Source of the DNA: Vulcanimicrobiota bacterium
GTDB taxonomy: Bacteria; Vulcanimicrobiota; Vulcanimicrobiia; Vulcanimicrobiales; Vulcanimicrobiaceae
Direction: 5' to 3'
DNA: 64,000 bases
Assembly: GCA_963812155.1 (NCBI GenBank)
Contig: CAWETW010000002.1
Span: 320,001 to 384,000, forward strand
Part shown: piece after piece, positions 8,861-24,601 of the stretch
Position numbering within the stretch: the first letter of the stretch is position 1
Layout: each line of letters opens with the position of its first letter
Notes under the pieces: generated by a model
What the model was told of the DNA's origin: nothing
What the model saw: the letters and a program-made list of their open reading frames with translations, nothing else
Databases searched by the model: none
Made by a program: the position numbers and the translations under genes

Positions 8861-9606
8861 CCGCGGAAATTATCGTTTCGGCGGATTCGGGCGTCGGCGA
8901 GATTCGCATCGATCGTCCCGCAAAAAAGAACGCACTCACTTCCGGCATGTACGCCGCCATGGCCGAAGCACTCGAAGCATTCGATCGCGACGACGCCATT
9001 CGCGTTGCGGTGATTCGCGGCGGAAACGATTTCACGGCGGGCAACGATCTCCGCGATTTCATCGATGCGTCCGCCGCCGGCGATCGCAAAGCGCTCGACG
9101 CGATCGTCGAGTTTCTCACGCACCTCGCAGATTTCTCGAAACCGCTGATCGCGGCCGTGCGCGGAAATGCCATCGGCGTCGGCACGACGATGCTGCTTCA
9201 TGCCGACGCCGTCGTCGCCGGAACGTCGGCGCGCTTTCGTGTGCCGTTCACGCAACTGGGCCTCGTCCCCGAAGCCGGCTCGTCGCTGCTCTTACCGCTG
9301 ACCGTCGGACGCATGCGCGCAGCGTGGATGCTGCTTGCGGGCGAGTTTTTCAGCGCGGGCGACGCGTTTGCAGCCGGCCTGATCACCAGCGTCGTCGCGG
9401 ACGACCGCGTCGAGGATACGGCCGCCGCAATGGCGGCCAAACTCGCGTCGCTTCCACCCGTCGCGGTACGCGAGACCAAACGTTTGATGCGCGATGCGAT
9501 CGCTCGAGACGTTCGCGAGCAAATGGATGCAGAGATCGCGGCCTTCGCCGAGCGCCTGACGTCCGAAGAGTTCCGAGCGTCCGTTAGCGCAGTGCTCGCG
9601 CGTTAG
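8857..9606 (+). CDS. Enoyl-CoA hydratase/isomerase (crotonase family)
   Basis: RPAKKNALT, FTAGNDL, KPLIAAVRGNAIGVGTT and PFTQLGLVPEAGSS. ATG at 8857 overlaps the upstream stop. Confidence 0.92.
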   Translation: MTAEIIVSADSGVGEIRIDRPAKKNALTSGMYAAMAEALEAFDRDDAIRVAVIRGGNDFTAGNDLRDFIDASAAGDRKALDAIVEFLTHLADFSKPLIAAVRGNAIGVGTTMLLHADAVVAGTSARFRVPFTQLGLVPEAGSSLLLPLTVGRMRAAWMLLAGEFFSAGDAFAAGLITSVVADDRVEDTAAAMAAKLASLPPVAVRETKRLMRDAIARDVREQMDAEIAAFAERLTSEEFRASVSAVLAR

Positions 9607-10544
9607 GCGACGGCGTCGCGCACGTCTCCTCGCGCCAGCGCGTACCCAACCAAACGGTCGACGAGCGCGTCGTACGTAATTCCGGCAGCGCCGCACGCAT
9701 CGGGCAATAGGCTCGTCGGGGTGAGTCCGGGCAGCGAATTGATCTCGAGAATGTACGGCCGGCGGTCTCCGCTGACGATGAAGTCGGTGCGCGAGTAGTC
9801 GCGCAGGCCGAGCAGCCGGTGCGTCGAGAGCGCGAGCATCTGCAGCCGCGCGGCGAGATCGTCGTCGATCTGCGCGGGAGCGACGTGCGTGCTGCCGCCG
9901 GGTTCGTACTTGGCATCGAACGAGTAGAATCCGTCGCGGTTGGCAACGATCTCGACGACCGGGAGCGCTTCTTCGCCCAGCACGCCGCACGTGAACTCGC
10001 GTCCTTCGACGTACTCTTCGGCGAGAATCTGCCCGAACGACTTGGATGCGGCCAGCATGGCCTCCGTCCACTGTTCGTGCGTGCGCACGATCGCAACGCC
10101 GGCCGACGAACCTTCGAAGCGCGGCTTGACCACGAGCGGAAGATCGAGCGACCCGGGAAGCAGCGGCAGCGTGCCGCCGCTCAGATCGAACATATCCCAA
10201 GCCGCGGTCGGCAGTCCCTCGGCCGCCAACAGTTTCTTCGTGAGGTGCTTGTCCATCGCGAGCGACGACGCTTCGACCTCGCTTCCGGTGTACGGAACGC
10301 CGGCATATTCGAGCAGTGCTTGGATGTGGCCGTCTTCACCGCCCGGCCCGTGCAGCGCGTTGAAGACGACGTCGGGACGCATCTCGCGCACCGCCTCGAA
10401 GAACCGGTCGTCGTAGTCGAGCGAAGCGGCATCGTAGCCGAGCGCGCGCAGCGCCCGCATCACGCCTTCACCGCTGAGCATCGAGATCTCGCGTTCGGCA
10501 CTGCTGCCGCCCATGACGACGACGATCTTTGACGTTCGTTTCAT
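9603..10544 (-). CDS. ddl: D-alanine--D-alanine ligase
   Basis: VVMGGSSAEREIS, ALHGPGGEDG, MDKHLTK, VVKPRFEGSSAGV and LEINSLPGLT. Confidence 0.97.
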   Translation of the reverse strand: MKRTSKIVVVMGGSSAEREISMLSGEGVMRALRALGYDAASLDYDDRFFEAVREMRPDVVFNALHGPGGEDGHIQALLEYAGVPYTGSEVEASSLAMDKHLTKKLLAAEGLPTAAWDMFDLSGGTLPLLPGSLDLPLVVKPRFEGSSAGVAIVRTHEQWTEAMLAASKSFGQILAEEYVEGREFTCGVLGEEALPVVEIVANRDGFYSFDAKYEPGGSTHVAPAQIDDDLAARLQMLALSTHRLLGLRDYSRTDFIVSGDRRPYILEINSLPGLTPTSLLPDACGAAGITYDALVDRLVGYALARGDVRDAVA

Positions 10545-11494
10545 GCGTCGATGAAGACCCCGACCAAATGCACTTCGAGTTGCAACTCGACCCCGAACCG
10601 TTCGTACACGGCGGAGCGCACGCGCGCGAGCAGCGTCGCGACGTCTTTGGCGCTCGCGCCGCCGACGTTGTTGATGAAGTTCGCGTGCAGCGTCGAGACT
10701 TCCGCGCCGCCTTCGCGCCACCCCTTGGCGCCGGCGGCTTCGATGAGCCGGGCCGCCTTGTCGCCCTCGGGGTTACGAAAGCACGAGCCGGCGTTGGGCA
10801 GGGCGATCGGCTGCGTGTCCTTGCGCCGGACGAGGCGCGCCTGCATCTCCTCGCGGACGGCGCTTGGGTCGTGCCGCGCGAACGCCAGCGTCACGCGCGA
10901 AACGATCGCGTCGCGCGCGAGCGTCGAATGGCGGTAGAAATACTGCAGCGTCACCGGGTGCGCCTCCGGCTTCGCGGGCGACTGCACCCACACGTCGCGA
11001 ACGAAATCGCCGATCTCGCGGTCGGTGCCGGCGTTCATACGCAGCGAGCCGCCGACCGTTCCCGGGATTCCCGAGAGCGAACCGATGCCCGCGGCGCCGG
11101 CGGTCGCGGCCTTTGCCGTCACGGCCGCCATGTTCGCCGACGCGCCCGCCTCGACAACGACCGCGCCGTTTTCGACGCCGACCTCGATTCCGGCAAAATC
11201 GCCGCCGAGACGAATCGCGACGCCGCGCAGGCCGCCGTCGCCGATCAGCATGTTGCTGCCGCTGCCGATCGCCATCCACGGTATCTTGCGTTTGAAGCAC
11301 CAGCGCATCAACGCCTCGAGTTCACCCTCACGGTGTGCGACCACGAACGCGTCGGCCGGACCGCCGATTTTCCAGGAGGTGTGTGGCGCGAGCGGCTCGT
11401 CGAAGGCGGCCCGGCCGGCGAAAATCTCGACCAGCGCCGCGCGATCGCGATCGGTCAGCAGGGAACGCGTCGCTTGTTCGGTGGTCAGACTCAC
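10541..11494 (-). CDS. murB: UDP-N-acetylenolpyruvoylglucosamine reductase
   Basis: HTSWKIGGPAD, GSGSNMLI, GIPGTVGGSLRMNAG, NAGSCFRNP, HANFINN and LQLEV. Confidence 0.96.
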   Translation of the reverse strand: MSLTTEQATRSLLTDRDRAALVEIFAGRAAFDEPLAPHTSWKIGGPADAFVVAHREGELEALMRWCFKRKIPWMAIGSGSNMLIGDGGLRGVAIRLGGDFAGIEVGVENGAVVVEAGASANMAAVTAKAATAGAAGIGSLSGIPGTVGGSLRMNAGTDREIGDFVRDVWVQSPAKPEAHPVTLQYFYRHSTLARDAIVSRVTLAFARHDPSAVREEMQARLVRRKDTQPIALPNAGSCFRNPEGDKAARLIEAAGAKGWREGGAEVSTLHANFINNVGGASAKDVATLLARVRSAVYERFGVELQLEVHLVGVFIDA

Positions 11495-12868
11495 GCCCGC
11501 ACCGTATCGGAGCGCGCGAGGCGCTCCGCAAGCCGCGCCGCGACGTCGGTCACGTTCCCGGCGCCCAAGAACAGGACGAGCGCGCCCGGCGGCGTTTCCT
11601 CAAAAATCCGTTCCTCCAAATCGTCGACCTGCGTAACGTAGCGCACCTCCGAACCGGCGGCCTCCAGTGGTTCGCCGATCGAGCGTTCGCTGACGCCGGG
11701 AATCGCCGGTTCGGAAGCCGCGTACACCGGCGTGAGATAGACGCGGTCCGCGCCGTGGAGCGCGTCTGCGAAATCGCGCGCGAGAAAAGCGGTGCGCGTG
11801 TAGCGGTGCGGCTGAAAGGCGACGATCAGCGGACCCGAATGAAAGTCGCGCGCCGCCGCGATCGTCGCGCGCACGGCCGTCGGATGGTGCGCGTAATCGT
11901 CCACGACCGTCATGCGCTCGCCCGACACCAGCACGTCGAAGCGGCGCCGCACGCCGCGAAAGCCGTGCAGCGCAGCCGCAATGGCATCGAACGGAAGGTC
12001 GAGTTCGAGCCCGACCGCGACGGCGGCAAGCGCGTTCAGCACGTTGATTTCGCCCGGAACGCGCAAACGAACGTGCCTAGCGTCGCGTCGCGCGCAATCG
12101 CGTCGAAACTCGCGTGTCCGCCTTCGTAACGAACGTTCGCGGCTCGCACGTCCGACGGCGCGACGCCGAACGTGACGGTTCGCGCACGCAACGCATGTTC
12201 GCTCAGCGACGCGCTGCGCGCGTTGTCGATTCCCAGGATCGCCGCGCCTCCGGACGGCAACCGCTCGAGGAATTCCTCGAACGCGCGTACGAGGTGCGGA
12301 AGGTCGTCGTCGCTGGCGAGATGGTCGTTTTCGACGTTCGTGACGACCGCGATCGACGGCTCGAGCAGTGCGAACGAACCGTCGGACTCGTCGGCTTCGG
12401 TCACGAACCACGGCGACGTTCCGTCGTGGGCGTTTGCATCGAGCGTGCGGTCGATGCCGCCCAAGACCAAGCTTGCGTCGATGCCTCCGGCGCGCAAAAC
12501 GGCGTGCGTCATCGCGGTCGTCGTCGTCTTTCCGTGCGTGCCGCAGATCGCAATGCCTCGCCTTCCCGCAATGAGTTGCGCGAGCATCTCGCCGCGGTGG
12601 AGCACCGTCGTGCCGTTTCGGCGCGCGGCGACGCACTCGGGGTTACTGCGATCGATTGCCGAACTGACGACGACCGCGCGTGCACCGCGCACGTTTTCGC
12701 CGCGATGGCCGATCGTCACCGACGCGCCTTCGCGGCGCAGCTCTTCGACCAGCGGCGTTGCCTTCACGTCGGATCCGGTCACGCTTCGCCGCGCGCCAGC
12801 AGGATGCGCGCGATAGCGCTCATGCCGATGCCGCCGATGCCGACGAAGTGGACGGGCTGCTTGGTCAC
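11491..12868 (-). CDS. murC: UDP-N-acetylmuramate--L-alanine ligase, two apparent frameshifts (about 12785 and 12070)
   Basis: HFVGIGGIGMSAIA, then (next frame) GTHGKTTTT and EADESDGSF, then (next frame) GVRRRF, DDYAHHPT and FQPHRYTRT. Confidence 0.93.
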
Positions 12869-13986
12869 CGCTCGTCTTTTCTCGCCGCAAGCCAATCGAC
12901 CCGGGCGAGAATGGTCGCAAGCGGATCTCCGGTTTGCAGGCGGCCCGCCGCGGCGCGCAACGCGCCGAGCGCCGGCTCCTCCGACGCGCGCGCAAACGCG
13001 TGTAGCGCGCCCGCGGGAAGGTCGCCGTCTGCGACGACCACGGCCGCGCCGCTTTCGGCGAAGCGCTGGGCGTTGGTCGTCTGATGATCGTCGGCTGCAA
13101 ACGGATACGGTACGAGAATGGCCGGCTTTCCGACGGCCGTAAGTTCGGCGAGCGTCGAAGCGCCGGCTCTGGCGAGCACGAGGTCGGCTGCGGCGTACGC
13201 CGCGGCCGGATCCTCCAGATATTTCACCACCGCCGCACGGCCGGCGGGCATCGCGGTCACGACGCGTTCGAAATCGTTTTCACCCGTAACGAGCAGCAGT
13301 TGCCAGCCGGGCGCCAACGCGCGCGCGATCGCGATGACGGCGTCGTTGACGCTGCGCGCGCCTTGGCTGCCGCCCATCGCCAGGAGCGTTTTTCGCGCGG
13401 GATCGAGCCCGAGCGATGCGATCGCACCGTCGCGCGACGGCAACGCGCGCAGACTCGCGCGAACGGGAACGCCGGTGCGTACGTACTTGCCGGCGAAACG
13501 CGAGTCCGCGTCGCCGAACGCGCCCCAGACTTCGTCGACGAACGGCGCGAGCATCCGGTTCGTGAGCCCCGGCTTAGCGTTCGGTTCGAGCAGCGCGATG
13601 GCGGCGCGATGCAGTCGCGTCCAGCGCAGCGCGCGCGCCGCGAGCACGGCCGGGAAGCAGACGTATCCTCCAGTGGCGATGACGGCGTCGGGACGATCGC
13701 GCAACAGCAGCGCGAGGCTTTGCAGCGTTCCCACGGCGTTCGCCCACGCCGTTCGGAGGAGATCGAACGAGAGCCGTCGCGTCAGCGCACGAGACGCAAT
13801 CGTGTGCAGGGCGTAACCGGCGCCCGGCACGATGCGTGCTTCGAGCCGGTCGGCGCTGCCGACGAACGCTGCGTGCGCGCCGCGCGCGCGCAGCGCATCG
13901 GCAACCGCAATCGCCGGATAGAGATGTCCGCCCGTGCCTCCGCCGGCAAAGAGGATGCGGCGACCGCCGCCGCCACTAACGTCCAC
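12865..13986 (-). CDS. murG: Lipid II GlcNAc transferase MurG
   Basis: GGGTGGHLYPA, TGGYV, EPNAKPGLTN, GGSQGA, RAGAST and HQTTNA. Confidence 0.97.
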   Translation of the reverse strand: MDVSGGGGRRILFAGGGTGGHLYPAIAVADALRARGAHAAFVGSADRLEARIVPGAGYALHTIASRALTRRLSFDLLRTAWANAVGTLQSLALLLRDRPDAVIATGGYVCFPAVLAARALRWTRLHRAAIALLEPNAKPGLTNRMLAPFVDEVWGAFGDADSRFAGKYVRTGVPVRASLRALPSRDGAIASLGLDPARKTLLAMGGSQGARSVNDAVIAIARALAPGWQLLLVTGENDFERVVTAMPAGRAAVVKYLEDPAAAYAAADLVLARAGASTLAELTAVGKPAILVPYPFAADDHQTTNAQRFAESGAAVVVADGDLPAGALHAFARASEEPALGALRAAAGRLQTGDPLATILARVDWLAARKDER

Positions 13987-15163
13987 TGAGACGGCGGTGG
14001 CGCCCGACGTTGGCGATCAAAGCCACTGCGACGAGGTTGACGATGAGCGAACTGCCCCCAAAGGAGACGAACGGCAGCGGCACGCCGGTCACCGGCCACG
14101 ACGACGTCACGACGCCGATGTTGATGAAGGCTTGGATCGCGATCATCGCGCCGCAACCGATTGCGAGGAAATACCCGAACCGGTCGGGCGCCGCCAACGC
14201 GATTCGCACGGCGCGATAGGCGAATGCCACGAAGAGCGCCACGACGACGAACGCGCCGACCAGTCCGAGCTCCTCGCCCAGAACCGAGAAGATGAAATCG
14301 GTGTACTGTTCGGGCAGATAGAAGAACTTCGCGCGCGACGCGCCCAGCCCCATGCCGAAGAAGCCGCCGCTGCCGAGCGCGAGCAGCGATTGCACGATGT
14401 GGAAGCCGGTGTTCTGCGGATCCTTCCACGGATTCAGAAACGCGAAGACGCGCGCCCTCCGGTAGGGACTCGCAATGACGCTGACGATGGCAAGCGGCGC
14501 CGTGACCGCCAGAATCGCGACGAGATGAAAGACGCGAGCACCGGCGGCGAAGAACATCGTGAAGGCGACGAACACCAGCAGCGACGCCGTTCCCATGTCG
14601 GGTTCTTTGAGGATGAGCACCGCCATCAGCAGCACCGGAACGCACAGCGGAAAGAGTCCGCGCGTCAACGACGTGATGCGATCGCCGCGATTGGAAAGAA
14701 TCGCCGCGAGATAGACGACCAGCGCGAGTTTCGCGAACTCGGACGGCTCGAGACTCAGCGAGGAGAAACCGATCCACCGGCGTCCACCGTTGACGCCGAC
14801 GCCGACGTGCGGCACGAAGACGAGCAGCAGCCCGGCGAGCGCTGCCACGAGCAGATACGGCGCGGCACGCTTGAGGCGCGCAAGATCCATGCGATACACC
14901 GCAAACGCGGCGATCGACCCGACGAGCAGCCATATCAGTTGGCGTTTGAGATAGTACGCGATGTCGCCGTGCTCGGCGTACGCCGTCGCGCTCGATGCCG
15001 AGAAGACCATGACCAGACCGATGCCTACGAGCGTCGCGACGACGGCGAACAGTACCGCGTCGGGCGCAGCCGTAACAAAGGAACGCACCGGCACGCGGTC
15101 GGCGGCATCGCGCCGCAGTGCGGTGCGGCCGCCCTTCGCGGCACGCGCCGACGCGTTAGGCAC
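13976..15163 (-). CDS. ftsW: SEDS family peptidoglycan polymerase FtsW
   Basis: GLVMVFSAS, RRWI, EPSEFAK, EPDMGT, LPEQYTDFIFSVLGEELG and GVPLPFVSFGGSS. Start approximate. Confidence 0.95.
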   Translation of the reverse strand: MPNASARAAKGGRTALRRDAADRVPVRSFVTAAPDAVLFAVVATLVGIGLVMVFSASSATAYAEHGDIAYYLKRQLIWLLVGSIAAFAVYRMDLARLKRAAPYLLVAALAGLLLVFVPHVGVGVNGGRRWIGFSSLSLEPSEFAKLALVVYLAAILSNRGDRITSLTRGLFPLCVPVLLMAVLILKEPDMGTASLLVFVAFTMFFAAGARVFHLVAILAVTAPLAIVSVIASPYRRARVFAFLNPWKDPQNTGFHIVQSLLALGSGGFFGMGLGASRAKFFYLPEQYTDFIFSVLGEELGLVGAFVVVALFVAFAYRAVRIALAAPDRFGYFLAIGCGAMIAIQAFINIGVVTSSWPVTGVPLPFVSFGGSSLIVNLVAVALIANVGRHRRLSGR

Positions 15164-16559
15164 CGGCCGGCTCCGGCAACGCGGCGACCGCCGCGGCAAA
15201 ACGCTCCCCGCGGTCCTCGGCCGACGCGAACATGTCGAACGATGCGCATGCCGGGGAAAGCAGCACGACGTCGCCCGCTACGCTGAGATCGCGCGCGCGC
15301 CGCACCGCTTCGTCCATCGAAGCCGCTCGCACGCCGGTCACGCCGCGGCTCGCGCTCAGAACGTCGCCGGCAGCTTCGCCGATCGCCACGACCGCTTTCG
15401 CGCGGCGGCGAATCGCGGCGCCGAGTTCGCTGAAACCCGTTCCCTTTGCACGACCGCCCGCGATCAGGACGATCGGACGATCGTAACTGTAGAGCGCCGC
15501 AACGCTCGCGTGGGGATTGGTCGATTTGGAGTCGTCGACGAACAGAACGCCGTCGATTTCCGCGACCGGTTGGAGCCGGTGCGGCATCGGCGCAAACGTG
15601 GCGATTGCCGAACGCAATGCGGCCGGTTCGCAGCCCGCTGCCAGCGACGCCAGCAACGCGGCCATCGCGTTACGCACGTTATGATCGCCCGGCAGTGCGA
15701 TCTCTTCGCGCGGAACGATGGCTCGGGGACGCGGATCGCCGGCAACCGGCGCGTACGTCAGCACTCCGCCGCGCAAGAACATTGCCGCGCGCTCTTCCTG
15801 CGCGCCCAGCGTGAACCAGAGTTGGCGCGCCTGCGCGCGAGCGTTACCGCATCCCCAGTGCAGTTGCGCGATGCGCGGGTCGTCGAGATTGCCGACGAAC
15901 CAATCGGTGAGACTCTGATTGGCGAAGATGCGATACTTCGCTTCCGCATATTCGTCCATCGAATGGTAGCGATCGAGATGATCCGGTGCGACGTTGAGGA
16001 GCACCGCGATACGCGGCTTGAACGATCGAATCGTTTCGAGTTGGAACGACGACACCTCGGCGACCACCCAATCGCGCTCGCTCGCGCCGAGGACTTCCTT
16101 GATCAGCGGATTGCCGATGTTGCCGCCGACGCGAACGCCGAAACCACACTCGCGCAGCAAGTGGGCGATGAGCGCGGTCGTCGTCGACTTGCCCTTCGTT
16201 CCGGTCACGGCCACGATCGGCGCGCGGCATAAACGGTAGGCGAGTTCGATTTCGCCGATCACCGGGACGTTGGCCGCGTTGATCGCTCGTACCACCGGCG
16301 ACGTGGGAGGAACGCCCGGCGACAACACCGCCGACGTCAGGCCGCTCGCAATCGTCGCGACGCCGGACGGCGCGACGAAACGCGCGCCCGTTCCCTCGAT
16401 CGAGGCAATCGCGCGAGTCAGCTCCGCCCAAGGCTTCTCATCGGTTGCGCAGACGTCGACGCCGCGCTCGCGCAATACGTCGACGCAGGCAAGGCCGCTG
16501 CGGCCCAGTCCGATGACGAGCACGCGATCTTGCGGACCGAACGCGAACATCTCGTTCAT
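15156..16559 (-). CDS. murD: UDP-N-acetylmuramoyl-L-alanine--D-glutamate ligase
   Basis: GLGRSG, SPGVP, TGTKGKSTT, EVSSFQL, DHLDRY, DDSKSTN and LSPACASFDMF. Confidence 0.97.
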   Translation of the reverse strand: MNEMFAFGPQDRVLVIGLGRSGLACVDVLRERGVDVCATDEKPWAELTRAIASIEGTGARFVAPSGVATIASGLTSAVLSPGVPPTSPVVRAINAANVPVIGEIELAYRLCRAPIVAVTGTKGKSTTTALIAHLLRECGFGVRVGGNIGNPLIKEVLGASERDWVVAEVSSFQLETIRSFKPRIAVLLNVAPDHLDRYHSMDEYAEAKYRIFANQSLTDWFVGNLDDPRIAQLHWGCGNARAQARQLWFTLGAQEERAAMFLRGGVLTYAPVAGDPRPRAIVPREEIALPGDHNVRNAMAALLASLAAGCEPAALRSAIATFAPMPHRLQPVAEIDGVLFVDDSKSTNPHASVAALYSYDRPIVLIAGGRAKGTGFSELGAAIRRRAKAVVAIGEAAGDVLSASRGVTGVRAASMDEAVRRARDLSVAGDVVLLSPACASFDMFASAEDRGERFAAAVAALPEPAGA

Positions 16560-17530
16560 CGCACCACCGCCAGCCCTACGAGCGAACACACGAGCGAACC
16601 GAGCCAAAAACGCGCCGTGACTTTCGTCTCGGGCCAGCCGCTCAACTCGAAGTGATGGTGCAGCGGACTCATCTTGAAGACGCGCCGGCCGTTGGTGAGC
16701 TTGAAATACGCGACCTGCACGATGACGGACAGCGTTTCGGCGACGAACACGCCGCCGACGAGCAAGAGCAGCAGCATTTCGCCGCTGAGGATGGCGATGC
16801 CCGAGAGCAGCGCGCCCAGTGCGAGCGACCCCGTATCGCCCATGAAGAGTTTGGCCGGATGCCGGTTATAGAAAAGGAAGCCCGCGCAGGCGCCCGCGCC
16901 CGTCGCCGCGGCGATCGCCGCTGCCGGCACGAGTGCCTGCGCCGCGATCGGGACGAAGACCGCCAGCGGCGGCAAGATCGTGCCTGCCGCCAGGCCGTCG
17001 AGTCCGTCGGTCAGATTCACGGCGTGAATCGTTCCGGTAATGGCCGCGATGCCGAGCAACAGCCAGAGCCAGTGCGGCGCGACGAGCGAGTACGAGCCGG
17101 CGTGAAAGAGCACGTCGCGCGGAAAGAAGCTCAACGACGCGTCGATCGCGCGCAGGAAGATTACGGCGACCAGTGCGGTGGCGAGAAACTTCGTGCGGGC
17201 TCGCAATCCGCGGTTGCGCCCCGACCGAATTCCCAGAACGTCGTCGATCGCTCCGACGGCGGCGCAGAGCAGCACCAGCACTCCAAGCGTCTGCACGAGC
17301 GGCAGGCGCGCCGTCAGCATCATTGCGGCGAATGCCGCGACGAAGACGAGGCCGCCCATCGTCGGCGTTCCGGTCTTGCGCTGATGGGTTTCGGGCGCGT
17401 CTTCGTAGGCGTGCTGGAAGACCTCGAGCCGGCGCAGGAGCGGCAGGAGCAGCGCTCCGGCAACGAGTGCGACGACCGCACCGAACACGATCCAGAACGG
17501 CGTTTGCGCAAAAATGACGCGCGCGTTCAC
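16556..17530 (-). CDS. mraY: Phospho-N-acetylmuramoyl-pentapeptide transferase
   Basis: KTGTPTMGG, NLTDGLDGLA, FMGDTGSLALG and MSPLHHHFE. GTG start at 17530 overlaps the upstream stop. Confidence 0.96.
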   Translation of the reverse strand: MNARVIFAQTPFWIVFGAVVALVAGALLLPLLRRLEVFQHAYEDAPETHQRKTGTPTMGGLVFVAAFAAMMLTARLPLVQTLGVLVLLCAAVGAIDDVLGIRSGRNRGLRARTKFLATALVAVIFLRAIDASLSFFPRDVLFHAGSYSLVAPHWLWLLLGIAAITGTIHAVNLTDGLDGLAAGTILPPLAVFVPIAAQALVPAAAIAAATGAGACAGFLFYNRHPAKLFMGDTGSLALGALLSGIAILSGEMLLLLLVGGVFVAETLSVIVQVAYFKLTNGRRVFKMSPLHHHFELSGWPETKVTARFWLGSLVCSLVGLAVVR

Positions 17531-18243
17531 GATGCGGCGCTTTCGAAGAGCGGATTCGGTCCGCGACCACGCCATTTCAGCACGACCAGGGGCGTCTGCT
17601 CGTCGCCGTTGCCGTGCGGATTGTCGAGCAACGCCCGTTCGACCAGCGCGGCGTCCACGCCGGCCGACGCGCCGAGAACCTTTGCTTTTTCGAGATCGTT
17701 GACGTCGACGACCGCGCAGCCGGAACCGGTCCGTTCGAACGCTGACTGCGCGAACGCGGCCGGCTCACGCGGCGCAAAGACGATTGCGCGTTCGTAGGGC
17801 GGCATCGTTCCGGTATACCCGTCGATCGCAGCCAGCGCTCCGCCCATCACTTCATAAAAAGCGCCGCGGCGGCCGAACGCGCGGCCGAAGACGTGTGCGA
17901 GCGTTGCGTAGAGCACTCTGGCACGTCCGGCTTTGTCGATAACGAGCTGCATCGATTCCGGCTGGCTCACCGTCGCCATGGCGTCGGCCCGGCGGCAGAG
18001 CGCATACGCGAGTGCCGATGGCCGCACGTGCTCGGCGGCGACGAACTCGGACTGCGCGATCGCCAATGCCGTCTCGGAAACGGCGATCACGTCGCCGGGT
18101 CTTGCAATGCCCGCCACTGCCTCCGCGACGATGCGCACCAGATCGTCGCCCGGGTTCACGAGCGCCGTGCGCACCGGTATGGCGACGATGCCTTCGGGGA
18201 CGCCTTCGCGTGCGACGGCGAGCGGTCGCGTTGCGACGCTCAC
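17527..18243 (-). CDS. Coenzyme F420-0:L-glutamate ligase (CofE)-like protein inside the dcw cluster
   Basis: C-terminal about 238 aa of ORF 17527..18993: IPVRTALVNPGDDL, GDVIAVSETALAIAQ, AIDG...PPY, VVDVNDL and DNPHGNGDEQTPLVVL, matching the CofE-like family seen in non-F420 bacteria. GTG start overlaps the murF stop. Confidence 0.75.
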   Translation of the reverse strand: MSVATRPLAVAREGVPEGIVAIPVRTALVNPGDDLVRIVAEAVAGIARPGDVIAVSETALAIAQSEFVAAEHVRPSALAYALCRRADAMATVSQPESMQLVIDKAGRARVLYATLAHVFGRAFGRRGAFYEVMGGALAAIDGYTGTMPPYERAIVFAPREPAAFAQSAFERTGSGCAVVDVNDLEKAKVLGASAGVDAALVERALLDNPHGNGDEQTPLVVLKWRGRGPNPLFESAAS

Positions 18244-19616
18244 GAGCGCAACTCCGTCAGCACTTCCTCCAGCCGATACTTTCGGGCGCCCTTCAGCAGC
18301 ACGACGTCGCCGCTGCGGACGTTGTCGCGCAGCCAGCGCGCGGCGTCGTGGTTGGACGAAACGCGCACCACGTCGCTGCAGCCTTCGCGCCGAGCGGCGC
18401 GCGCCAGCACCTCGGCATACTCGCCGCCGACGAGCAGCACGCCCGCGCGGCCGGCGGCATGCGCGCCGACGCGCTCGTGCAGCGGCACCGCCTCCGTACC
18501 GAGCTCCGCCATGCTGGCAAGCACGGCGATCGTACGCGACGCCTCTTCGTTCGCCAGCGCGTCCAGGGCCGCGACCATGCCGCCCGGGCTCGCGTTGTAC
18601 GCGTCGTAAATCATTCGCCATCCGCCCGGCATCTCGATCGACTCGTAGCGGCCGGGCGGCAAACGCAGCGCCGGAATCACGTCGCTCATCGCTGCGAGGT
18701 CGGCACCCAGTTCCACCGCTCCGGCCAGTGCCGCTGCGAGATTGGCGGCGTTGTGCGCTCCGGGGAACGCGATGCGAACGTGCCGGTCGAATATGCGGCG
18801 TCCGCCGGCGACGTCGATGAGGTGCGAACGCGCGAGCAGCGCGGTGACGCGCCCGAATCCGCCGGCGTCCGCGCCGGGATCGTCGTCGGCAAGAAACCAG
18901 TGCGGCGAGGCCGGCAACGTCTCGGCCCGAGCGAGCGAAACGGCGTCGCGCGCATTGAGCACCGCCTGCGCGCCGGCGCCGAAGAGCGCCCATTTCATCT
19001 CCGCGATGCGCTCGCGAGACCCGGCAATCTCGAGGTGCGCGTCGCCGACGTTGGTGAGGATCCCGACGTGCGGTCGGGCGATCGCCACGAGTTCGGCGAC
19101 GTCGCCATAACGGCGCGCACCCATTTCGACGACGATCGCGTCGTGCGCTTCGTTGGAGGCGCCCAGCAGCAGTCTGCTTACGCCGATTTCGTTGTTCTCG
19201 TTGGCCGGCGCCACGGCAATTCGTTCGCCGTAATGCGCCGTCAACAACTGCGCGGCGAAGACTTTGCAGGTCGTCTTGCCGGCGCTCCCCGTGATCGCGA
19301 GGATGCGTCCTTCGAATCGTTCGCGGGCCAGCGCGGCCAGCGCCATGTAGGCGCGCAGCGTATCCTCGACGACCATCGTAGCGACGCCGTCGCAGCGCGC
19401 ATCGGCGCGATCGACGACGATCATGTGGGCACCGCGCGCAACGGCGTCTGCGACGAAGTCGTGTCCGTCGAAACGCTCGCCGTGCAGCGCCAGGAACGTG
19501 TCGCCCGCATCGGTGCTGCGCGTGTCGGTCGAGACGCGTACCCGCGCCGGCGCGAACTGCGGATCGAGCAGGGTCGCCGACGTTGCCGCGACCGCGTCGT
19601 CGAGCGGCAGGTTCAT
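18240..19616 (-). CDS. murF: UDP-N-acetylmuramoyl-tripeptide--D-alanyl-D-alanine ligase
   Basis: STDTR, GERFDGHDF, ITGSAGKTTCK, NNEIG, VEMG, DAYNASP, MAELG and LLKGAR. Confidence 0.96.
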   Translation of the reverse strand: MNLPLDDAVAATSATLLDPQFAPARVRVSTDTRSTDAGDTFLALHGERFDGHDFVADAVARGAHMIVVDRADARCDGVATMVVEDTLRAYMALAALARERFEGRILAITGSAGKTTCKVFAAQLLTAHYGERIAVAPANENNEIGVSRLLLGASNEAHDAIVVEMGARRYGDVAELVAIARPHVGILTNVGDAHLEIAGSRERIAEMKWALFGAGAQAVLNARDAVSLARAETLPASPHWFLADDDPGADAGGFGRVTALLARSHLIDVAGGRRIFDRHVRIAFPGAHNAANLAAALAGAVELGADLAAMSDVIPALRLPPGRYESIEMPGGWRMIYDAYNASPGGMVAALDALANEEASRTIAVLASMAELGTEAVPLHERVGAHAAGRAGVLLVGGEYAEVLARAARREGCSDVVRVSSNHDAARWLRDNVRSGDVVLLKGARKYRLEEVLTELRS

Positions 19617-21073
19617 CGCAGCACTCCGCGCATGCGCAGCGCGCGCCGCGCCGTTTCGGCGTCGTCGAATTCGAACACGTCGTTGCCGACGATTTGATGC
19701 GTCTCGTGGCCCTTCCCTGCGATCAGCACGACGTCGCCCGGCTCCGCTTCGAGAACGGCGCGTTCGATGGCTCGCGCGCGATCGAGTTCGACGACGTGTG
19801 GATGCGTCCCGATGCCCGCCACGATCTCATCGGCAATCACTTGGGGATCTTCGGTGCGAGGGTTGTCGTTCGTCACGTACAGCCGGCCGGCCAAGCGTGC
19901 GGCCGTCGCTCCCATCTCGCGCCGCTTCCCGCGGTCGCGATTTCCACCGCAACCGAACACGACCGATAGCGAACCGCCGGTCGTCTCGCGCAGTGCCGAG
20001 AGCGCCTGATGCAGCGCATCGGGCGTATGCGCGTAGTCGACGACCACGTCAACGCCGTCTTGGCACAACCGCTGCATGCGTCCGGGAACGCGTTCGAGCT
20101 GCAGCAGCCCGCGCGCGCTGTCGGCGTCGCGGGCGCCGAGCGCGCGCGCCGCACCGATGGCGGCCAGCGCGTTGGAGACGTTGAAGCGCCCGGGAAAGCG
20201 CACGACGAAGCGCGTGCCGTCGAGCGAAAAGGCAACCGCTTCCGGCGAGGCTTCGACGCCGGTCGCGACGAGCTCGGCGCCCTCGCGTTCGCCGTACGTG
20301 GTGACGCGCACTCCGGCCGCCGCGAGTTCGCGCGCCCACTGCGCGCCGAGAGGGTCGCCGGCATTGAGCACCGCTTCCGCCGATATGTCGAAGAGGCGCC
20401 GCTTCGCTGCCGCGTACGCCTCGCGCGTTTGATGAAAGTCGAGATGGTCGCGGGTCACGTTGGTGAGCACGCCGACGCGAAAGCGCACGTCGTCTACGCG
20501 GCCGAGCGCCAGCGCGTGGGAACTGACCTCCATCGCGACCGCACGCGCGCCGTCGTCGCGCATTCCCGCGAGCAGTGCGTGCAGTTCGGGAGGCAACGGC
20601 GTCGTATGGGCCAGCGCCCGATCCTGCGCGCCGAACGAAGCGCCGACCGTGCCGATCGTTCCGGACGGTATTCCGGCTTCTTCAAGAATCCCGCGAAGCA
20701 TGTGCACGGTCGTCGTCTTACCGTTGGTTCCGGTAACGCCCACGACGTCGAGGGCATGCGACGGATCCCCGTAAAACGCCGCGGCGAGCGTTGAAAGCGC
20801 GCGTCGCGTGTCGCTCACCGCGATCGCCACCGTTTCGGAAGCCACGGGCACCGCGGCGTCGACGACCACCGCGGCCGCACCCGCCGCAACCGCTTGTGCG
20901 ACGAACGCGTGGCCGTCGGAGTGCTCGCCGCGCAACGCGACGAAGAGTGCGCCCGGTACGATTCGGCGCGAGTCGCTTTCGATCGCACAAACTGCACGCG
21001 ATGCGTCGCCGCGCACGACGGTTTCAGGCGGAAGTCGCGCGATCAGCGCACGCAGATCGACGGTTTCAGCCAT
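19613..21073 (-). CDS. murE: UDP-N-acetylmuramoyl-L-alanyl-D-glutamate--2,6-diaminopimelate ligase
   Basis: TGTNGKTT, MEVSSH, DHLDFH, DYAHTPD and AGKGHE. The DNPR motif indicates meso-DAP specificity. Confidence 0.97.
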   Translation of the reverse strand: MAETVDLRALIARLPPETVVRGDASRAVCAIESDSRRIVPGALFVALRGEHSDGHAFVAQAVAAGAAAVVVDAAVPVASETVAIAVSDTRRALSTLAAAFYGDPSHALDVVGVTGTNGKTTTVHMLRGILEEAGIPSGTIGTVGASFGAQDRALAHTTPLPPELHALLAGMRDDGARAVAMEVSSHALALGRVDDVRFRVGVLTNVTRDHLDFHQTREAYAAAKRRLFDISAEAVLNAGDPLGAQWARELAAAGVRVTTYGEREGAELVATGVEASPEAVAFSLDGTRFVVRFPGRFNVSNALAAIGAARALGARDADSARGLLQLERVPGRMQRLCQDGVDVVVDYAHTPDALHQALSALRETTGGSLSVVFGCGGNRDRGKRREMGATAARLAGRLYVTNDNPRTEDPQVIADEIVAGIGTHPHVVELDRARAIERAVLEAEPGDVVLIAGKGHETHQIVGNDVFEFDDAETARRALRMRGVLR

Positions 21074-22799
21074 GGGGTCCAGCCGCCGGCAGGATTCCAG
21101 CATGCAGCATCGCCGCACGCGAAATCTCCGCAAACGCCGGGGCTGCGACCACGCTTCCGTAGTAGGATCCGATTGGGCGCTCGACCTTCACGTAAACGAG
21201 ATAGCGAGGATGCTCGTAAGGCACCATGCCGATAAAGGATGCGGCGTAGTATCCCGAGCGATATTCACCGTCGACGACCATCTCCGCGGTTCCGGTCTTA
21301 CCGGCGGTCGAGTATCCGGGAATTTGCGCGGTCGGATCGCCGGTTCCGTGTAACACGACCATCCGCAGAAAACCGCGCAACTCGCTTGCGGTGCGACGCG
21401 AGAAGACGCGGCGAACCACGTGGGGCGCAACGCTGTGCACGAGCTTGCCCTGCTGGTCGTAGACGGCCCGCACGATGTGCGGCTGCATCAGAAGGCCGCC
21501 GTTGGCGATCGCGCAGTAGTAACGGGCCATTGCAATCGGCGTAACCGAAACGCCTTGTCCGAACGACATCGTCGCCAGCGACGGCGCGCTCCAATCCCGC
21601 GGATTCGGAACGATGCCGGGATTCTCTCCGGGCAGTTCGATGCCGGTCGTGTCGCCGAAGCCGGCGCGCCGCTCCATTGCGTAAAAGGTTTTTGCTCCGA
21701 TCGACATGCCGACTTCGGCGGCTCCGACGTTATGCGAAAATTCGATGATTTGCCCCAGCGTCTCGCTTGCGCCGGTACCGGCCATGAAGCCGTCTTCCGC
21801 GTTGTGAATGATTCGCCCGCCGACTTCTAAACGATCGTGCGCCGGGAAACGCGTCGTCAACGATACTTTGTGCGAATCGAGCGCGGCGGCAGCCGTTAGG
21901 AGTTTGTAGGTCGAGCCGGGTTCGTACGCGTCCATCACCGCGCGGTTGCGCCGGTGGGCGTCGTCGTATTTCCAGAACCGGTTCGGATCGAAGGTCGGCG
22001 CATTGGCTAGAGCGAGCACTTCTCCGGTGTAGGGATCCATGACGATGGCGGTGCCGTCGAGCGCATGGTACGTCGTGACTTGCGTAGCGAGCGCACGCTC
22101 GGCGACGAACTGGATGTAGGAGTCGAGCGTCAACTCGATCGTCGAGCCGGGGTCGGCGGCCGTCACGACGCGCTCGCGGCCGAATGGAATCGGACGTCCG
22201 AACTCGTCGGTCTCGAGCATCACGCTGCCCGAGCGGCCGCGCAGCAGCGCGTCTTGCGAATACTCGATGCCGTCGAGGCCGTTTTCGTCGGTACCGACGA
22301 AGCCGAGCACCGTCGCAGCCAATCTGCCCGACGGGTCGACGCGCTGGCCCGTTTCTTCTTCCTTTAAAGCGATGCCGCCGATACCGAGCGCGCGCACCCG
22401 CTCGACCTCGTCGTGCGGCGCCTTGCGCGCAATCCACGCAAACCAGGAACGCTTGTCGTGAAGCTGCGCAACCGTAGCGGGATCGAGCTTCCCGAATATG
22501 CTTTGCAGTTTCGCGGCGGTCGCATCCGGATTGGCGAGATCGCGCGGCACCGCGTAGACGCTCTCGGAAGGGAGCGAACGCACCAGCACGCTGCCGTTGC
22601 GGTCGAGGATGCTGCCGCGGCGCGCAAAGACTTCAACCGCGTTGGAACGCTGCGCGAGGGCCTGGCGCGCGTACGAGGCGCCGTGAACCACTTGCACGTC
22701 GTAGAGCCGCCACGCGAGGTACGCGGCGGTGACCAGAAGCGCGTAAAAGACGAACTTGGCGCGAATCGGCGAGATGCGTGCGAAGGCTCGCTGATGCAC
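21066..22799 (-). CDS. ftsI: Class B penicillin-binding protein (FtsI/SpoVD-like)
   Basis: N-terminal TM, RGSILDRNG, GIE, EPGSTYK (SxxK), SHN (SxN) and GKTGTA. Confidence 0.93.
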   Translation of the reverse strand: MHQRAFARISPIRAKFVFYALLVTAAYLAWRLYDVQVVHGASYARQALAQRSNAVEVFARRGSILDRNGSVLVRSLPSESVYAVPRDLANPDATAAKLQSIFGKLDPATVAQLHDKRSWFAWIARKAPHDEVERVRALGIGGIALKEEETGQRVDPSGRLAATVLGFVGTDENGLDGIEYSQDALLRGRSGSVMLETDEFGRPIPFGRERVVTAADPGSTIELTLDSYIQFVAERALATQVTTYHALDGTAIVMDPYTGEVLALANAPTFDPNRFWKYDDAHRRNRAVMDAYEPGSTYKLLTAAAALDSHKVSLTTRFPAHDRLEVGGRIIHNAEDGFMAGTGASETLGQIIEFSHNVGAAEVGMSIGAKTFYAMERRAGFGDTTGIELPGENPGIVPNPRDWSAPSLATMSFGQGVSVTPIAMARYYCAIANGGLLMQPHIVRAVYDQQGKLVHSVAPHVVRRVFSRRTASELRGFLRMVVLHGTGDPTAQIPGYSTAGKTGTAEMVVDGEYRSGYYAASFIGMVPYEHPRYLVYVKVERPIGSYYGSVVAAPAFAEISRAAMLHAGILPAAGPHG

Positions 22800-22812
22800 T
22801 AGGGAACGGCCG

Positions 22813-23268
22813 CTAACGCTGCCGGGTTGCCGCCGGAACGAACAGTCCGGCCAGCGACGAGAGCACCGCGACGCGCGGTTGTCCGGCGGCCGCCGAAGGC
22901 CGCGGGACGTGGAGCACGGCAAACTGTACGGGCTCGGTCATCTTCAAACGCGTTGCGATCGCGGAGAGGCGATCGTCGGAGCGCAACGCGGCAATTCGAT
23001 CGTCGAGGCGCATCGTCTCCTCGAGCAGGGATTCGCGTTGATGTGCGGCGCGTGCCACCGCGTACGAGAGTCCGGTTAGCGTCGACGTCAGCAGCACGTA
23101 GCCCATGAACAGCACGAGCAGGCCGGTGACGGCGGCAGTCACCCGTCCGATGCTGGAGTAACGGGCACGCGATTTGTGCACGATGCGCCGGCGCGTTGCG
23201 GCGCGTGCGGTGCGCGGATTGCGCACGCGGGCGGAGCGTTCGGAGGGTCGCGGCGCAATCACGATCAA
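22813..23268 (-). CDS. ftsL: Cell division protein FtsL-like
   Basis: Basic N-terminus, one TM and a leucine-zipper-like segment. Position between rsmH and ftsI. Confidence 0.65.
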   Translation of the reverse strand: MIVIAPRPSERSARVRNPRTARAATRRRIVHKSRARYSSIGRVTAAVTGLLVLFMGYVLLTSTLTGLSYAVARAAHQRESLLEETMRLDDRIAALRSDDRLSAIATRLKMTEPVQFAVLHVPRPSAAAGQPRVAVLSSLAGLFVPAATRQR

Positions 23269-24137
23269 CTCGCCTTCCGCCGCGCGGCGCGCAGCTTGGC
23301 GCTGCGGGAGCGCGGGTTTTCCGCGATCTCGTCAGCATCGGGTAGCAACGGTTTTTTGGTCAACACCTCGAGACGCTCGTCGTCCTTGAACGAGCGCTTG
23401 ACGATCCGGTCTTCGAGCGAATGGAAACTGATGGCCACGACGCGACCGGCTTCACGCAGCCGGCCGGCGGCGGAGCTCAATCCGTCGAGCAGCGCGTCGA
23501 GTTCGCCGTTGACCGCGATGCGCAATGCTTGAAACACGCGCGTCGCCGGATGCAAGCGCTCGCGGTGACCCCGGCGATGAACGACTCCTGAAACCAGCGA
23601 CGCCAACTCGGTCGTCGTGGTCGGCAACTCGCCGGCGCTTCGCCGTTCGACGATTGCGTGCGCGATTTTTCGCGCGAACCGCTCTTCGCCGTAGAAGTGG
23701 AAAATGTCGGCGAGTTCGCTTTCGCTCGAACTCGAAAGGACGTCGTACGCGCTGCGCCCCTCGTGCGGATCCATGCGCATGTCGAGCGGCGCCGTCTTTC
23801 CGAGCGAGAATCCGCGGTGCGCGTCGTCAAACTGCATCGAGGAGACCCCCAAGTCGAAGAGGACGCCGTCGACCGACGCGATTGCGCAGCCGTCCAGAAC
23901 GGCTGCCAAGTTTCGAAAGTTCTCGCGCACGAACGTCAAGCGCGCATCGTCGATTTCCGCCGCTCGCGCACTCGCCGCCGGATCCGCATCCAGCGCAATG
24001 AGCCGCCCCGATTCCAGGCGCTCCAGGATCGCTCTCGCGTGGCCGCCCGCGCCAAAGGTTGCATCGACGTAGATCCCATCGGGCCGGATCGCCAGCAATT
24101 CCAACGCCGGCCGGAGCAGGACCGGGACGTGCCTCAT
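23265..24137 (-). CDS. rsmH: 16S rRNA m4C1402 methyltransferase
   Basis: HVPVLL, DATFGAGGH, DLGVSSMQ, PLDMRM, FQALRIAVN, SFHSLEDRIVK and NPRSRSAKLR. Confidence 0.98.
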   Translation of the reverse strand: MRHVPVLLRPALELLAIRPDGIYVDATFGAGGHARAILERLESGRLIALDADPAASARAAEIDDARLTFVRENFRNLAAVLDGCAIASVDGVLFDLGVSSMQFDDAHRGFSLGKTAPLDMRMDPHEGRSAYDVLSSSSESELADIFHFYGEERFARKIAHAIVERRSAGELPTTTTELASLVSGVVHRRGHRERLHPATRVFQALRIAVNGELDALLDGLSSAAGRLREAGRVVAISFHSLEDRIVKRSFKDDERLEVLTKKPLLPDADEIAENPRSRSAKLRAARRKAS

Positions 24138-24160
24138 GCGCGACGCTCCACATGGCGCCC

Positions 24161-24601
24161 CTACAGCCCCAGGTCGGCCATGAAGCCGGCCACCTCGCCC
24201 TCGGGCGGCTGCTGAAAGGCATAACGTTCTTTCGCCCAGATCTCGACCCGCGTGAGCAGTCCGACCGAAACCACCTGGCGTTCGATTCCGGCGTACTCCC
24301 GCAGCCGCGCGGGCACGACCACCCGGCCTTGGTTATCGCATCCGACCTCCTCGCTGTTTGCGAAGAGATAGCGCACGAAACGCCGGTACGGCTCGTCCTT
24401 CTGCGGCACCGATTCGAGCCGTCCGCAAATCTCCACCCAGGTTGCGCTTGGATAGAGCGCGAGGCATGGATCGGGGTGTGCGATGGTCAGCACGAACTGC
24501 GATCCGAGCCGTTCGCGGAAGCGCGCGGGCACGATGAGCCGTCCCTTATCGTCAAGGGCGTGCTGCTCCGAACCGGCAAAACGCGGCAATCCGGCGTGCA
24601 C
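24161..24601 (-). CDS. mraZ: Division/cell wall cluster transcriptional repressor MraZ
   Basis: FAG...LDDKGRLIVPARFR, DNQGRVVVP and RVEIW. First gene of the dcw cluster. Confidence 0.96.
   Translation of the reverse strand: MHAGLPRFAGSEQHALDDKGRLIVPARFRERLGSQFVLTIAHPDPCLALYPSATWVEICGRLESVPQKDEPYRRFVRYLFANSEEVGCDNQGRVVVPARLREYAGIERQVVSVGLLTRVEIWAKERYAFQQPPEGEVAGFMADLGL

Follow-up and report, generated by a model that had tools for sequence, protein, structure and literature searches.

A CofE-fold protein encoded between murF and mraY in Vulcanimicrobiota: a probable amide ligase of peptidoglycan precursors

What does a homologue of the F420-0:glutamate ligase CofE do between murF and mraY? 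The question is raised by a 64,000-nucleotide (nt) stretch from a soil bacterium of the Vulcanimicrobiota (Eremiobacterota), namely positions 320,001 to 384,000 of contig CAWETW010000002.1 in assembly GCA_963812155.1 (83.85% complete), which we refer to as the window. Within its division and cell wall (dcw) operon lies a gene, here called X, for a protein of 238 amino acids; a reading made from the letters of the window alone (hereafter, the sequence-only reading) had placed it between these two genes without giving a strand, which is the minus strand, and had proposed that it modifies peptidoglycan precursors. Our answer is that X is probably a nucleoside triphosphate-dependent amide ligase of some kind for the peptidoglycan precursor; that it acts at the α-carboxyl group of D-Glu in the stem peptide is plausible, albeit a shade short of probable.

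The Pfam family PF01996 matches X with 46.8 bits against a cut-off of 25, over residues 24-107 only. The remainder of the chain was covered by two AlphaFold models (pLDDT 83.1 and 92.4 (AF2)). In Foldseek, the top five matches to the X model are all CofE of A. fulgidus (E 3.7e-9 to 3.2e-8), the next fold having an E value of 1.0; VIA aligns 182 residues with CofE (Z 14.7, rmsd 3.1; next fold Z 3.6), and a comparison with 48,161 chains again returns CofE (Z 13.4, next 4.0). Profile and structure searches thus agree on the fold upon which the sequence-only reading depended, and X is predicted to adopt it over its whole domain. The motifs from which that reading had recognized the family are likewise all present: PGDDL (residues 31-35), GDVIAVSE (50-57), IDG (140-142), VVDVNDL (178-184) and DNPHGNGDEQTP (207-218). 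In an alignment of 135 family domains (20 of 155 proteins were left out for partial coverage, and L067, which has an internal stop, was excluded from alignment A1), conservation is seen for D51 in 133, D141 in 132, D180 in 134, N182 in 129 and D183 in 124 domains, and for N208 in all 135, P209 in 134, G211 in 133, T217 in 132 and P218 in 134; all of these but D183 are 96-100% conserved, a pattern that, as judged from the alignment, is enzyme-like. D180 aligns with Asp150 of CofE, and the position of CofE Thr151 is occupied by Ala or Val in the X family; D141 falls out of register with Asp109 in the profile alignment.

That X is an F420-0:glutamate ligase, as its database name says, is favoured by the PF01996 match, the fold and the names in the source annotation, but is hardly credible. 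Its scores against the CofE equivalog models are far too low (TIGR01916, 27.7 bits against a cut-off of 180.65; PRK13293, 27.5 against 274). X is the only PF01996 match in its genome, and CofC and CofG gave no match in this 83.85%-complete assembly; the sole PF01933 match, considered as a CofD, was rejected because it is YvcK/GlmR. The lack of F420 genes that the sequence-only reading had noted in the window hence extends to the whole genome, at that level of completeness. The same reading had worried about a full F420 pathway in want of a CofE; instead, cofD was found neither in this genome nor in any of 131 class genomes, and cofG in none of 61. The 38 of 201 phylum genomes with cofD-like matches all belong to other classes, which suggests that F420 is synthesized there. 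A canonical cofE, scoring above the cut-off, adjoins cofD in 5/5 F420-gene-bearing relatives checked, and X lies on a separate contig from cofD-cofE in the three of these whose X locus was retrieved; relatives that make F420 therefore keep a canonical cofE of their own beside cofD, with X elsewhere. (Elsewhere in the phylum, outside the class of X, canonical clusters of cofD and cofE are at G058:C20, G086:C118, G054:C15, G078:C52 and G072:C74.) Moreover, CofE is described as holding F420 by a domain-swapped hairpin and Arg234 (PMC10861534). Between the D-x-N motif and the final P motif, X has 39 residues compared with 64 in CofE, and the segment that is shorter by 25 residues is the one taken to carry this hairpin, as far as its position can be deduced; the structural alignment stops at CofE residue 226 with 3 residues of X remaining, such that Arg234 has no counterpart. 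Together, the cut-offs, the cofD and cofG negatives, the separate true cofE and the missing F420-contacting parts largely refute an F420 ligase role for X.

The distribution of X is that of a core gene of its phylum. A profile finds it in 198/201 phylum genomes and in 169/170 of the near-complete ones; 197 of the matches are strong, the weak match in G072 being probably the true cofE of that genome, and 130/131 other class genomes have X (the phylum and class tallies include genomes marked as unpublished, G128, G178, G208 and G215, none of which carries a claim by itself). Its dcw position, which might have been a peculiarity of one genome, is class-wide: the order murF-X-mraY is found in 70/75 loci, the remaining five ending at contig ends, and in all 20 of the additional class genomes, which come from three families. 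X has a higher sequence identity than each of murE, murF, mraY and murD in 34 of 50 loci (median 72%, against 58-70%). X is a strongly conserved core gene. No match to the family was found among the plasmids or viral contigs searched. Two entries deposited as bacteriophage, L108 (MT835656.1) and L109 (MT838774.1), carry housekeeping genes; the proteins of L108 are identical or near-identical to those of Brachybacterium paraconglomeratum, and the X of L109 is an Oscillospiraceae protein.

Evidence for a wall function comes from the proteins to which X is joined. MurF and X form a single frame in 4/4 genomes of one genus (g42) and in 12 of 20 long matches, a fusion that probably arose only once. 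When 1.84 billion representatives were searched, 1,020 family matches (clusters at 50% identity) came back, with named members in Leptolyngbya, Marchantia (MPTK1_2g07820), Tetraselmis, Caldisericia, Oscillospiraceae, Limnochordia, Thermodesulfobium and Brachybacterium. Of the 82 long relatives that were scanned, six have a fused Amidase_3 domain, eight an AsnB-type domain and one MurF; in B. paraconglomeratum, the AsnB-X fusion is encoded between dapB and dapA. A 71-row tree, in which several rows were put into the cyanobacterial- and plant-type groups by similarity only, places the class of X as sister to the amidase-fused proteins (98/95); a 47-row clade (95/94) unites these two with the Veillonella-type, cyanobacterial, plant, TPR and other Eremiobacterota forms. 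Cyanobacterial-type and plant or algal rows, including Leptolyngbya, Marchantia and Tetraselmis, make up one clade (100/98), and a long branch separates the X family from canonical CofE. PF01996 itself matched only the three archaeal controls and drew a blank in S. elongatus; the model also misses a cyanobacterial member of the family, and this blank is therefore uninformative.

The Veillonella-type relatives were sampled from metagenomes as the best 80 of 337 loci, which were confirmed and reduced to 35 representatives, and the following counts hold for that sample. A small membrane-anchored gene lies directly upstream of X in 35/35 representatives, and in 19 of the 29 with sufficient room, murI, the product of which makes D-Glu, lies no more than 1.2 kb upstream. 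One such locus, L172 (SDR, DUF697, DUF1232, thioesterase, murI, membrane gene, X, rdgB, phosphoesterase, speD), matches the gene order of Vpar_0426-0438 of V. parvula given in Table S1 of PMC5491611, where Vpar_0432 is listed as COG1478, two genes after murI, and as detected by mass spectrometry; from gene order alone, we infer that Vpar_0432 belongs to the X family. The membrane partner (L155:3411-4004) has a transmembrane helix followed by a domain of ~170 amino acids without a Pfam family, with motifs GD, N-x-G-x-Q and R-x-D-x-YWEA. Its homologue in cyanobacteria, plants and other Eremiobacterota is the N-terminal half of the 400-residue X forms, a half seen in the X proteins of L110-L128, in P0196 and in P0173. 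A search of 61 class genomes, run without a positive control, did not find it, nor was it found in the genome of the window apart from leakage onto X itself.

The precursor ligase reading is favoured by the recurring partners, MurF, MraY, MurI, Ddl, amidase, AsnB and DapA/B, all of which act on the stem peptide, by making, joining, cutting or amidating it. The best candidate site is the D-Glu α-carboxyl, as this is the known place of the polyamines in Veillonella and Selenomonas (described in PMC10628300, PMC5020339 and PMC12826042) and of the N-acetylputrescine carried by residue 2 of the glaucophyte plastid wall peptide (PMC9434261). MurT (MurT_C), the enzyme established for this carboxyl (PMC3266927), was found in 1/201 phylum genomes, a near-absence that weakly favours X at this site. 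In CofE, GTP phosphorylates a carboxylate and an amine then displaces the phosphate (PMC10861534). By analogy, X would be a cytoplasmic, nucleotide- and metal-dependent enzyme that joins an amine to the free D-Glu α-carboxyl of the stem peptide: GTP or ATP would phosphorylate the carboxylate, and the incoming amine would displace the phosphate. The acceptor may be the UDP-MurNAc-pentapeptide delivered by MurF, or lipid I/II delivered by MraY/MurG. Most relatives would gain access to the membrane through the transmembrane partner domain, for which coupling to MurF and MraY may substitute in the class of X. The amine would be putrescine or cadaverine in the Veillonella-type branch, and in the AsnB fusions glycine is possibly attached and then amidated.

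A number of observations weigh against this reading, or against extending it across the family. We take the metal ligands of CofE to be Asp109, Asp150, Thr151 and Glu208; position 212 of X, read as the equivalent of Glu208, is Asn or Gln in 135/135 domains, and the metal site therefore differs. The family Arg66 is replaced by Glu in the class of X, a replacement that may signal a different substrate or nucleotide. In the other classes of the phylum, a peptidoglycan gene (ddl, L121) adjoins X at just one of 19 loci, the remaining neighbours being folD, glnS, transporters or unknowns. Fusions to TPR, GNAT, PlsY, M20 peptidase, HD and ADK do not indicate the stem peptide, and polysaccharide deacetylase fusions also occur among the 82 long relatives. 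X and the Veillonella-type clade are not sisters, so that a common substrate does not follow. A nearby murI is absent from 10 of the 29 Veillonella-type representatives, and murI-rph-rdgB is a common gene run in Firmicutes, so X may be a passenger beside murI. The UDP-MurNAc-pentapeptide of moss is given as unmodified in PMC9434261, and any plant modification would then fall at the lipid stage; the accessible text of the literature searched holds no report of a cyanobacterial wall substituent or muropeptide analysis.

The polyamine rationale is likewise weakened. The outer membrane is described as tethered by pyruvylated polymers in most diderm Terrabacteria, and by polyamines in Negativicutes (PMC10628300). 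The pyruvylation gene csaB is present in 59/61 class genomes, the genome of the window having its copy at G000:C2:113770-114675 (L247). No surface-layer homology (SLH) domain, the kind borne by the OmpM tether that binds the polyamine, was matched in that genome; the domain is present in 14 of 32 genomes of its family (undetected in 18) and in 80 of 101 phylum genomes, and the tether of the family may be divergent. With csaB near-universal and no SLH match in the genome itself, a wall polyamine is not obviously needed. The same genome has two genes of the Orn/Lys/Arg decarboxylase family, one of them frameshifted (C3:644273-645364), and PF02784 gave no match in it, so that no LysA-type diaminopimelate decarboxylase was found in the 83.85%-complete assembly. 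The proposal of a peptidoglycan-precursor ligase has thus fared unevenly: a wall role is backed by the MurF, amidase and AsnB fusions and by the Veillonella-type adjacency to murI, while the argument from polyamines and SLH proteins has lost ground through the absence of SLH matches in this genome, the near-ubiquity of csaB and a tree in which the Veillonella-type clade is not the sister of X.

Several other activities could be accommodated by the same locus, bridge formation on diaminopimelate and ligation to the lactyl group being the main rivals. X might link an amino acid (D-Glu or D-Asp) through its side-chain carboxyl to the amine of meso-diaminopimelate, creating an interpeptide bridge that AsnB would amidate in the fusions, in the manner of the Aslfm/AsnH pair. 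The cross-link of Veillonella and Selenomonas is direct, and AsnB was not found in the genome of the window. Bridge formation would suit the γ-glutamyl amides made by CofE (PMC10861534), the neighbouring murI and the AsnB-X gene between dapB and dapA in Brachybacterium, the wall of which is of type A4γ (PMC3035206, PMC6090031); yet, what is described for Veillonella and Selenomonas is a D-Glu that carries polyamines and not an acidic bridge (PMC10628300), and we regard a bridge as unlikely. An equally unlikely substrate is the lactyl carboxyl of UDP-MurNAc, to which X would re-attach L-Ala or a recycled stem peptide in the manner of MurC or Mpl, forming with the amidase an exchange or editing module. 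The first substrate of CofE is a phospholactyl carboxyl (PMC10861534), and the sister clade of X is fused to a MurNAc-L-Ala amidase, which cuts the very bond in question; the operon already has murC, however, and both the retention of X in plastid lineages and the membrane-anchored partner of most relatives better fit a lipid-linked substrate.

Slightly less probable still is that X modifies another envelope polymer (a secondary wall polysaccharide, a lipid or lipopolysaccharide), its dcw location reflecting co-regulation only: the near-universal csaB, the PlsY and polysaccharide deacetylase fusions and the presence of another PF01996 gene, qimC, in an S. pyogenes operon for wall modification (PMC12803152) are in keeping with this, but in-frame fusions to MurF and amidase indicate the stem peptide. 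A similarly low probability attaches to a role outside the envelope pathways, in the ligation of a cofactor or small molecule, as the folD and metH/MTHFR-type neighbours at some loci of other classes might imply; against it stand a dcw position that is fixed in 90/90 assessable class loci and several independent fusions to wall enzymes. Finally, X could be a non-catalytic scaffold or nucleotide sensor between MurF and MraY, as its position, its fusion and the replacement of Glu208 by Asn/Gln would allow; with Asp and Asn residues near-invariant across phyla, including lineages in which X is far from murF, this is very improbable.

The features of the locus are collected in Table 1. Pfam and NCBIfam matches support the identities that the sequence-only reading gave to murF and mraY; ftsL is named from its position and has no Pfam match, and the DNPR motif of murE is presumably of the meso-diaminopimelate type. 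The frame of X has a GTG start and a TGA stop, and the GTGA overlaps noted on both of its sides are there, at 4 nt each; such an overlap is kept at 53/59 murF-X and 47/66 X-mraY junctions scored. As special evidence for X they were rejected: murE-murF, mraY-murD and rsmH-ftsL in the same operon overlap likewise by 4 nt, and the overlaps therefore mark membership of the operon, not function. The GGAG upstream of X is a putative ribosome-binding site. The murC gene (11491-12870, minus strand) changes frame near 12782 and near 12065 and is thereby split over three frames; murC is normally essential, the shifts are probably assembly indels, and fusions or breaks seen in just one genome thus call for caution where assemblies are of this kind. 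An in-frame X-MraY fusion (P0122, L029), seen in one genome and maybe due to an assembly indel, was not used, and long open frames in genus g2 were rejected as fusions, the genes being separate in 7/7.

Table 1. Coordinates, in the window, of X and of the features around and within it
Feature	Position	Strand	Remark
dcw operon: mraZ rsmH ftsL ftsI murE murF X mraY murD ftsW murG murC murB ddl	9603..24601	minus	
mraY	16556..17530	minus	downstream neighbour of X; Pfam/NCBIfam
X	17527..18243	minus	238-amino-acid CofE-fold protein (predicted); PF01996 member below CofE equivalog cut-offs; GTG start at 18243, TGA stop ending at 17527
GTGA overlap, X stop/mraY start	17527..17530	minus	4 nt
N208-P-x-G-[NQ]-x-x-E/Q-Q-T-P218 motif	17590..17622	minus	correspondence to CofE 206-214 read from motifs
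D180-V-N182-D183 motif	17695..17706	minus	aligned to CofE D-T-N
Asp141 codon	17821..17823	minus	conserved in 132/135; probable counterpart of CofE Asp109
Residue 66 codon	18046-18048	minus	Arg in 123/135 family members, Glu in the class of X
GTGA overlap, murF stop/X start	18240..18243	minus	4 nt
murF	18240..19616	minus	upstream neighbour of X; in-frame fusion to X in one related genus; Pfam/NCBIfam
GGAG, ribosome-binding-site-like motif	18252..18255	minus	within murF 3' end, 8 nt before X GTG; putative
murE	19613..21073	minus	with DNPR motif

The closest known systems are CofE of A. fulgidus (PDB codes: 2PHN, 2G9I and 7ULD; PF01996, TIGR01916, COG1478) and FbiB's N-terminal domain. X shares with CofE, which is a homodimer with a shared active site, the predicted fold (TM ~0.55; identity 18-24%), GDDL/GD motifs towards the N terminus and a D-x-N after the central strand, and differs in its wall-gene context and in lacking an F420 pathway. 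The site and chemistry proposed for X resemble those of MurT/GatD, which acts on the ATP-activated D-Glu α-carboxyl of a lipid-linked precursor; MurT, however, is a Mur-ligase homologue that works with a glutaminase partner to add ammonia (PMC3266927), whereas X has another fold and no Mur domain, and AsnB was not found in its genome, in which GatD was not searched for. QimC of S. pyogenes, compared here by family and context only, is of PF01996 type, has no F420 role and belongs to a wall-modifying operon; its gene context is different, and its authors call its role unclear (PMC12803152).

Of particular relevance are the ligations to the D-Glu α-carboxyl, on record for decades and seen in gut anaerobes and algal plastids, for which no assigned gene was found in the literature searched: polyamine in Selenomonas and Veillonella, N-acetylputrescine in Cyanophora and glycine in Micrococcus. 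Such ligations require ATP and use lipid intermediates as substrates. They form the same amide as that proposed for X, relatives of which are present in Veillonella, judging by synteny, and in plastid-bearing lineages. One enzyme class, ancient among the Terrabacteria and decorating the D-Glu α-carboxyl of the precursor, might conceivably lie behind all three, that is, behind the polyamine of Negativicutes, the N-acetylputrescine of plastids and, through the AsnB fusions, the glycine or glycinamide of Micrococcales, a unification that we offer tentatively and consider doubtful. The walls of Brachybacterium contain glycine, the position of which is not stated in the source (PMC6090031).

The X family is a real, strongly conserved and misannotated gene family; no paper giving it a peptidoglycan role was found in open full text, most subscription journals lying outside the search. 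If X is a precursor ligase, the chemistry of peptidoglycan precursors would gain a new step as well as a fold new to it, and numerous genes of bacteria, algae and plants (1,020 matched clusters at 50% identity) would need a correction of the annotation 'F420 ligase'. V. parvula, a tractable species, would offer in Vpar_0432 a candidate gene for the polyamine addition by which the outer membrane of diderm Firmicutes is tethered, and Marchantia MPTK1_2g07820 would become a candidate for the modification of plastid peptidoglycan that PMC9434261 proposes without identifying it. Were the notion of one ancient enzyme class also to hold, cyanobacteria and the walled plastids of plants would carry an unrecognised modification of the stem peptide.

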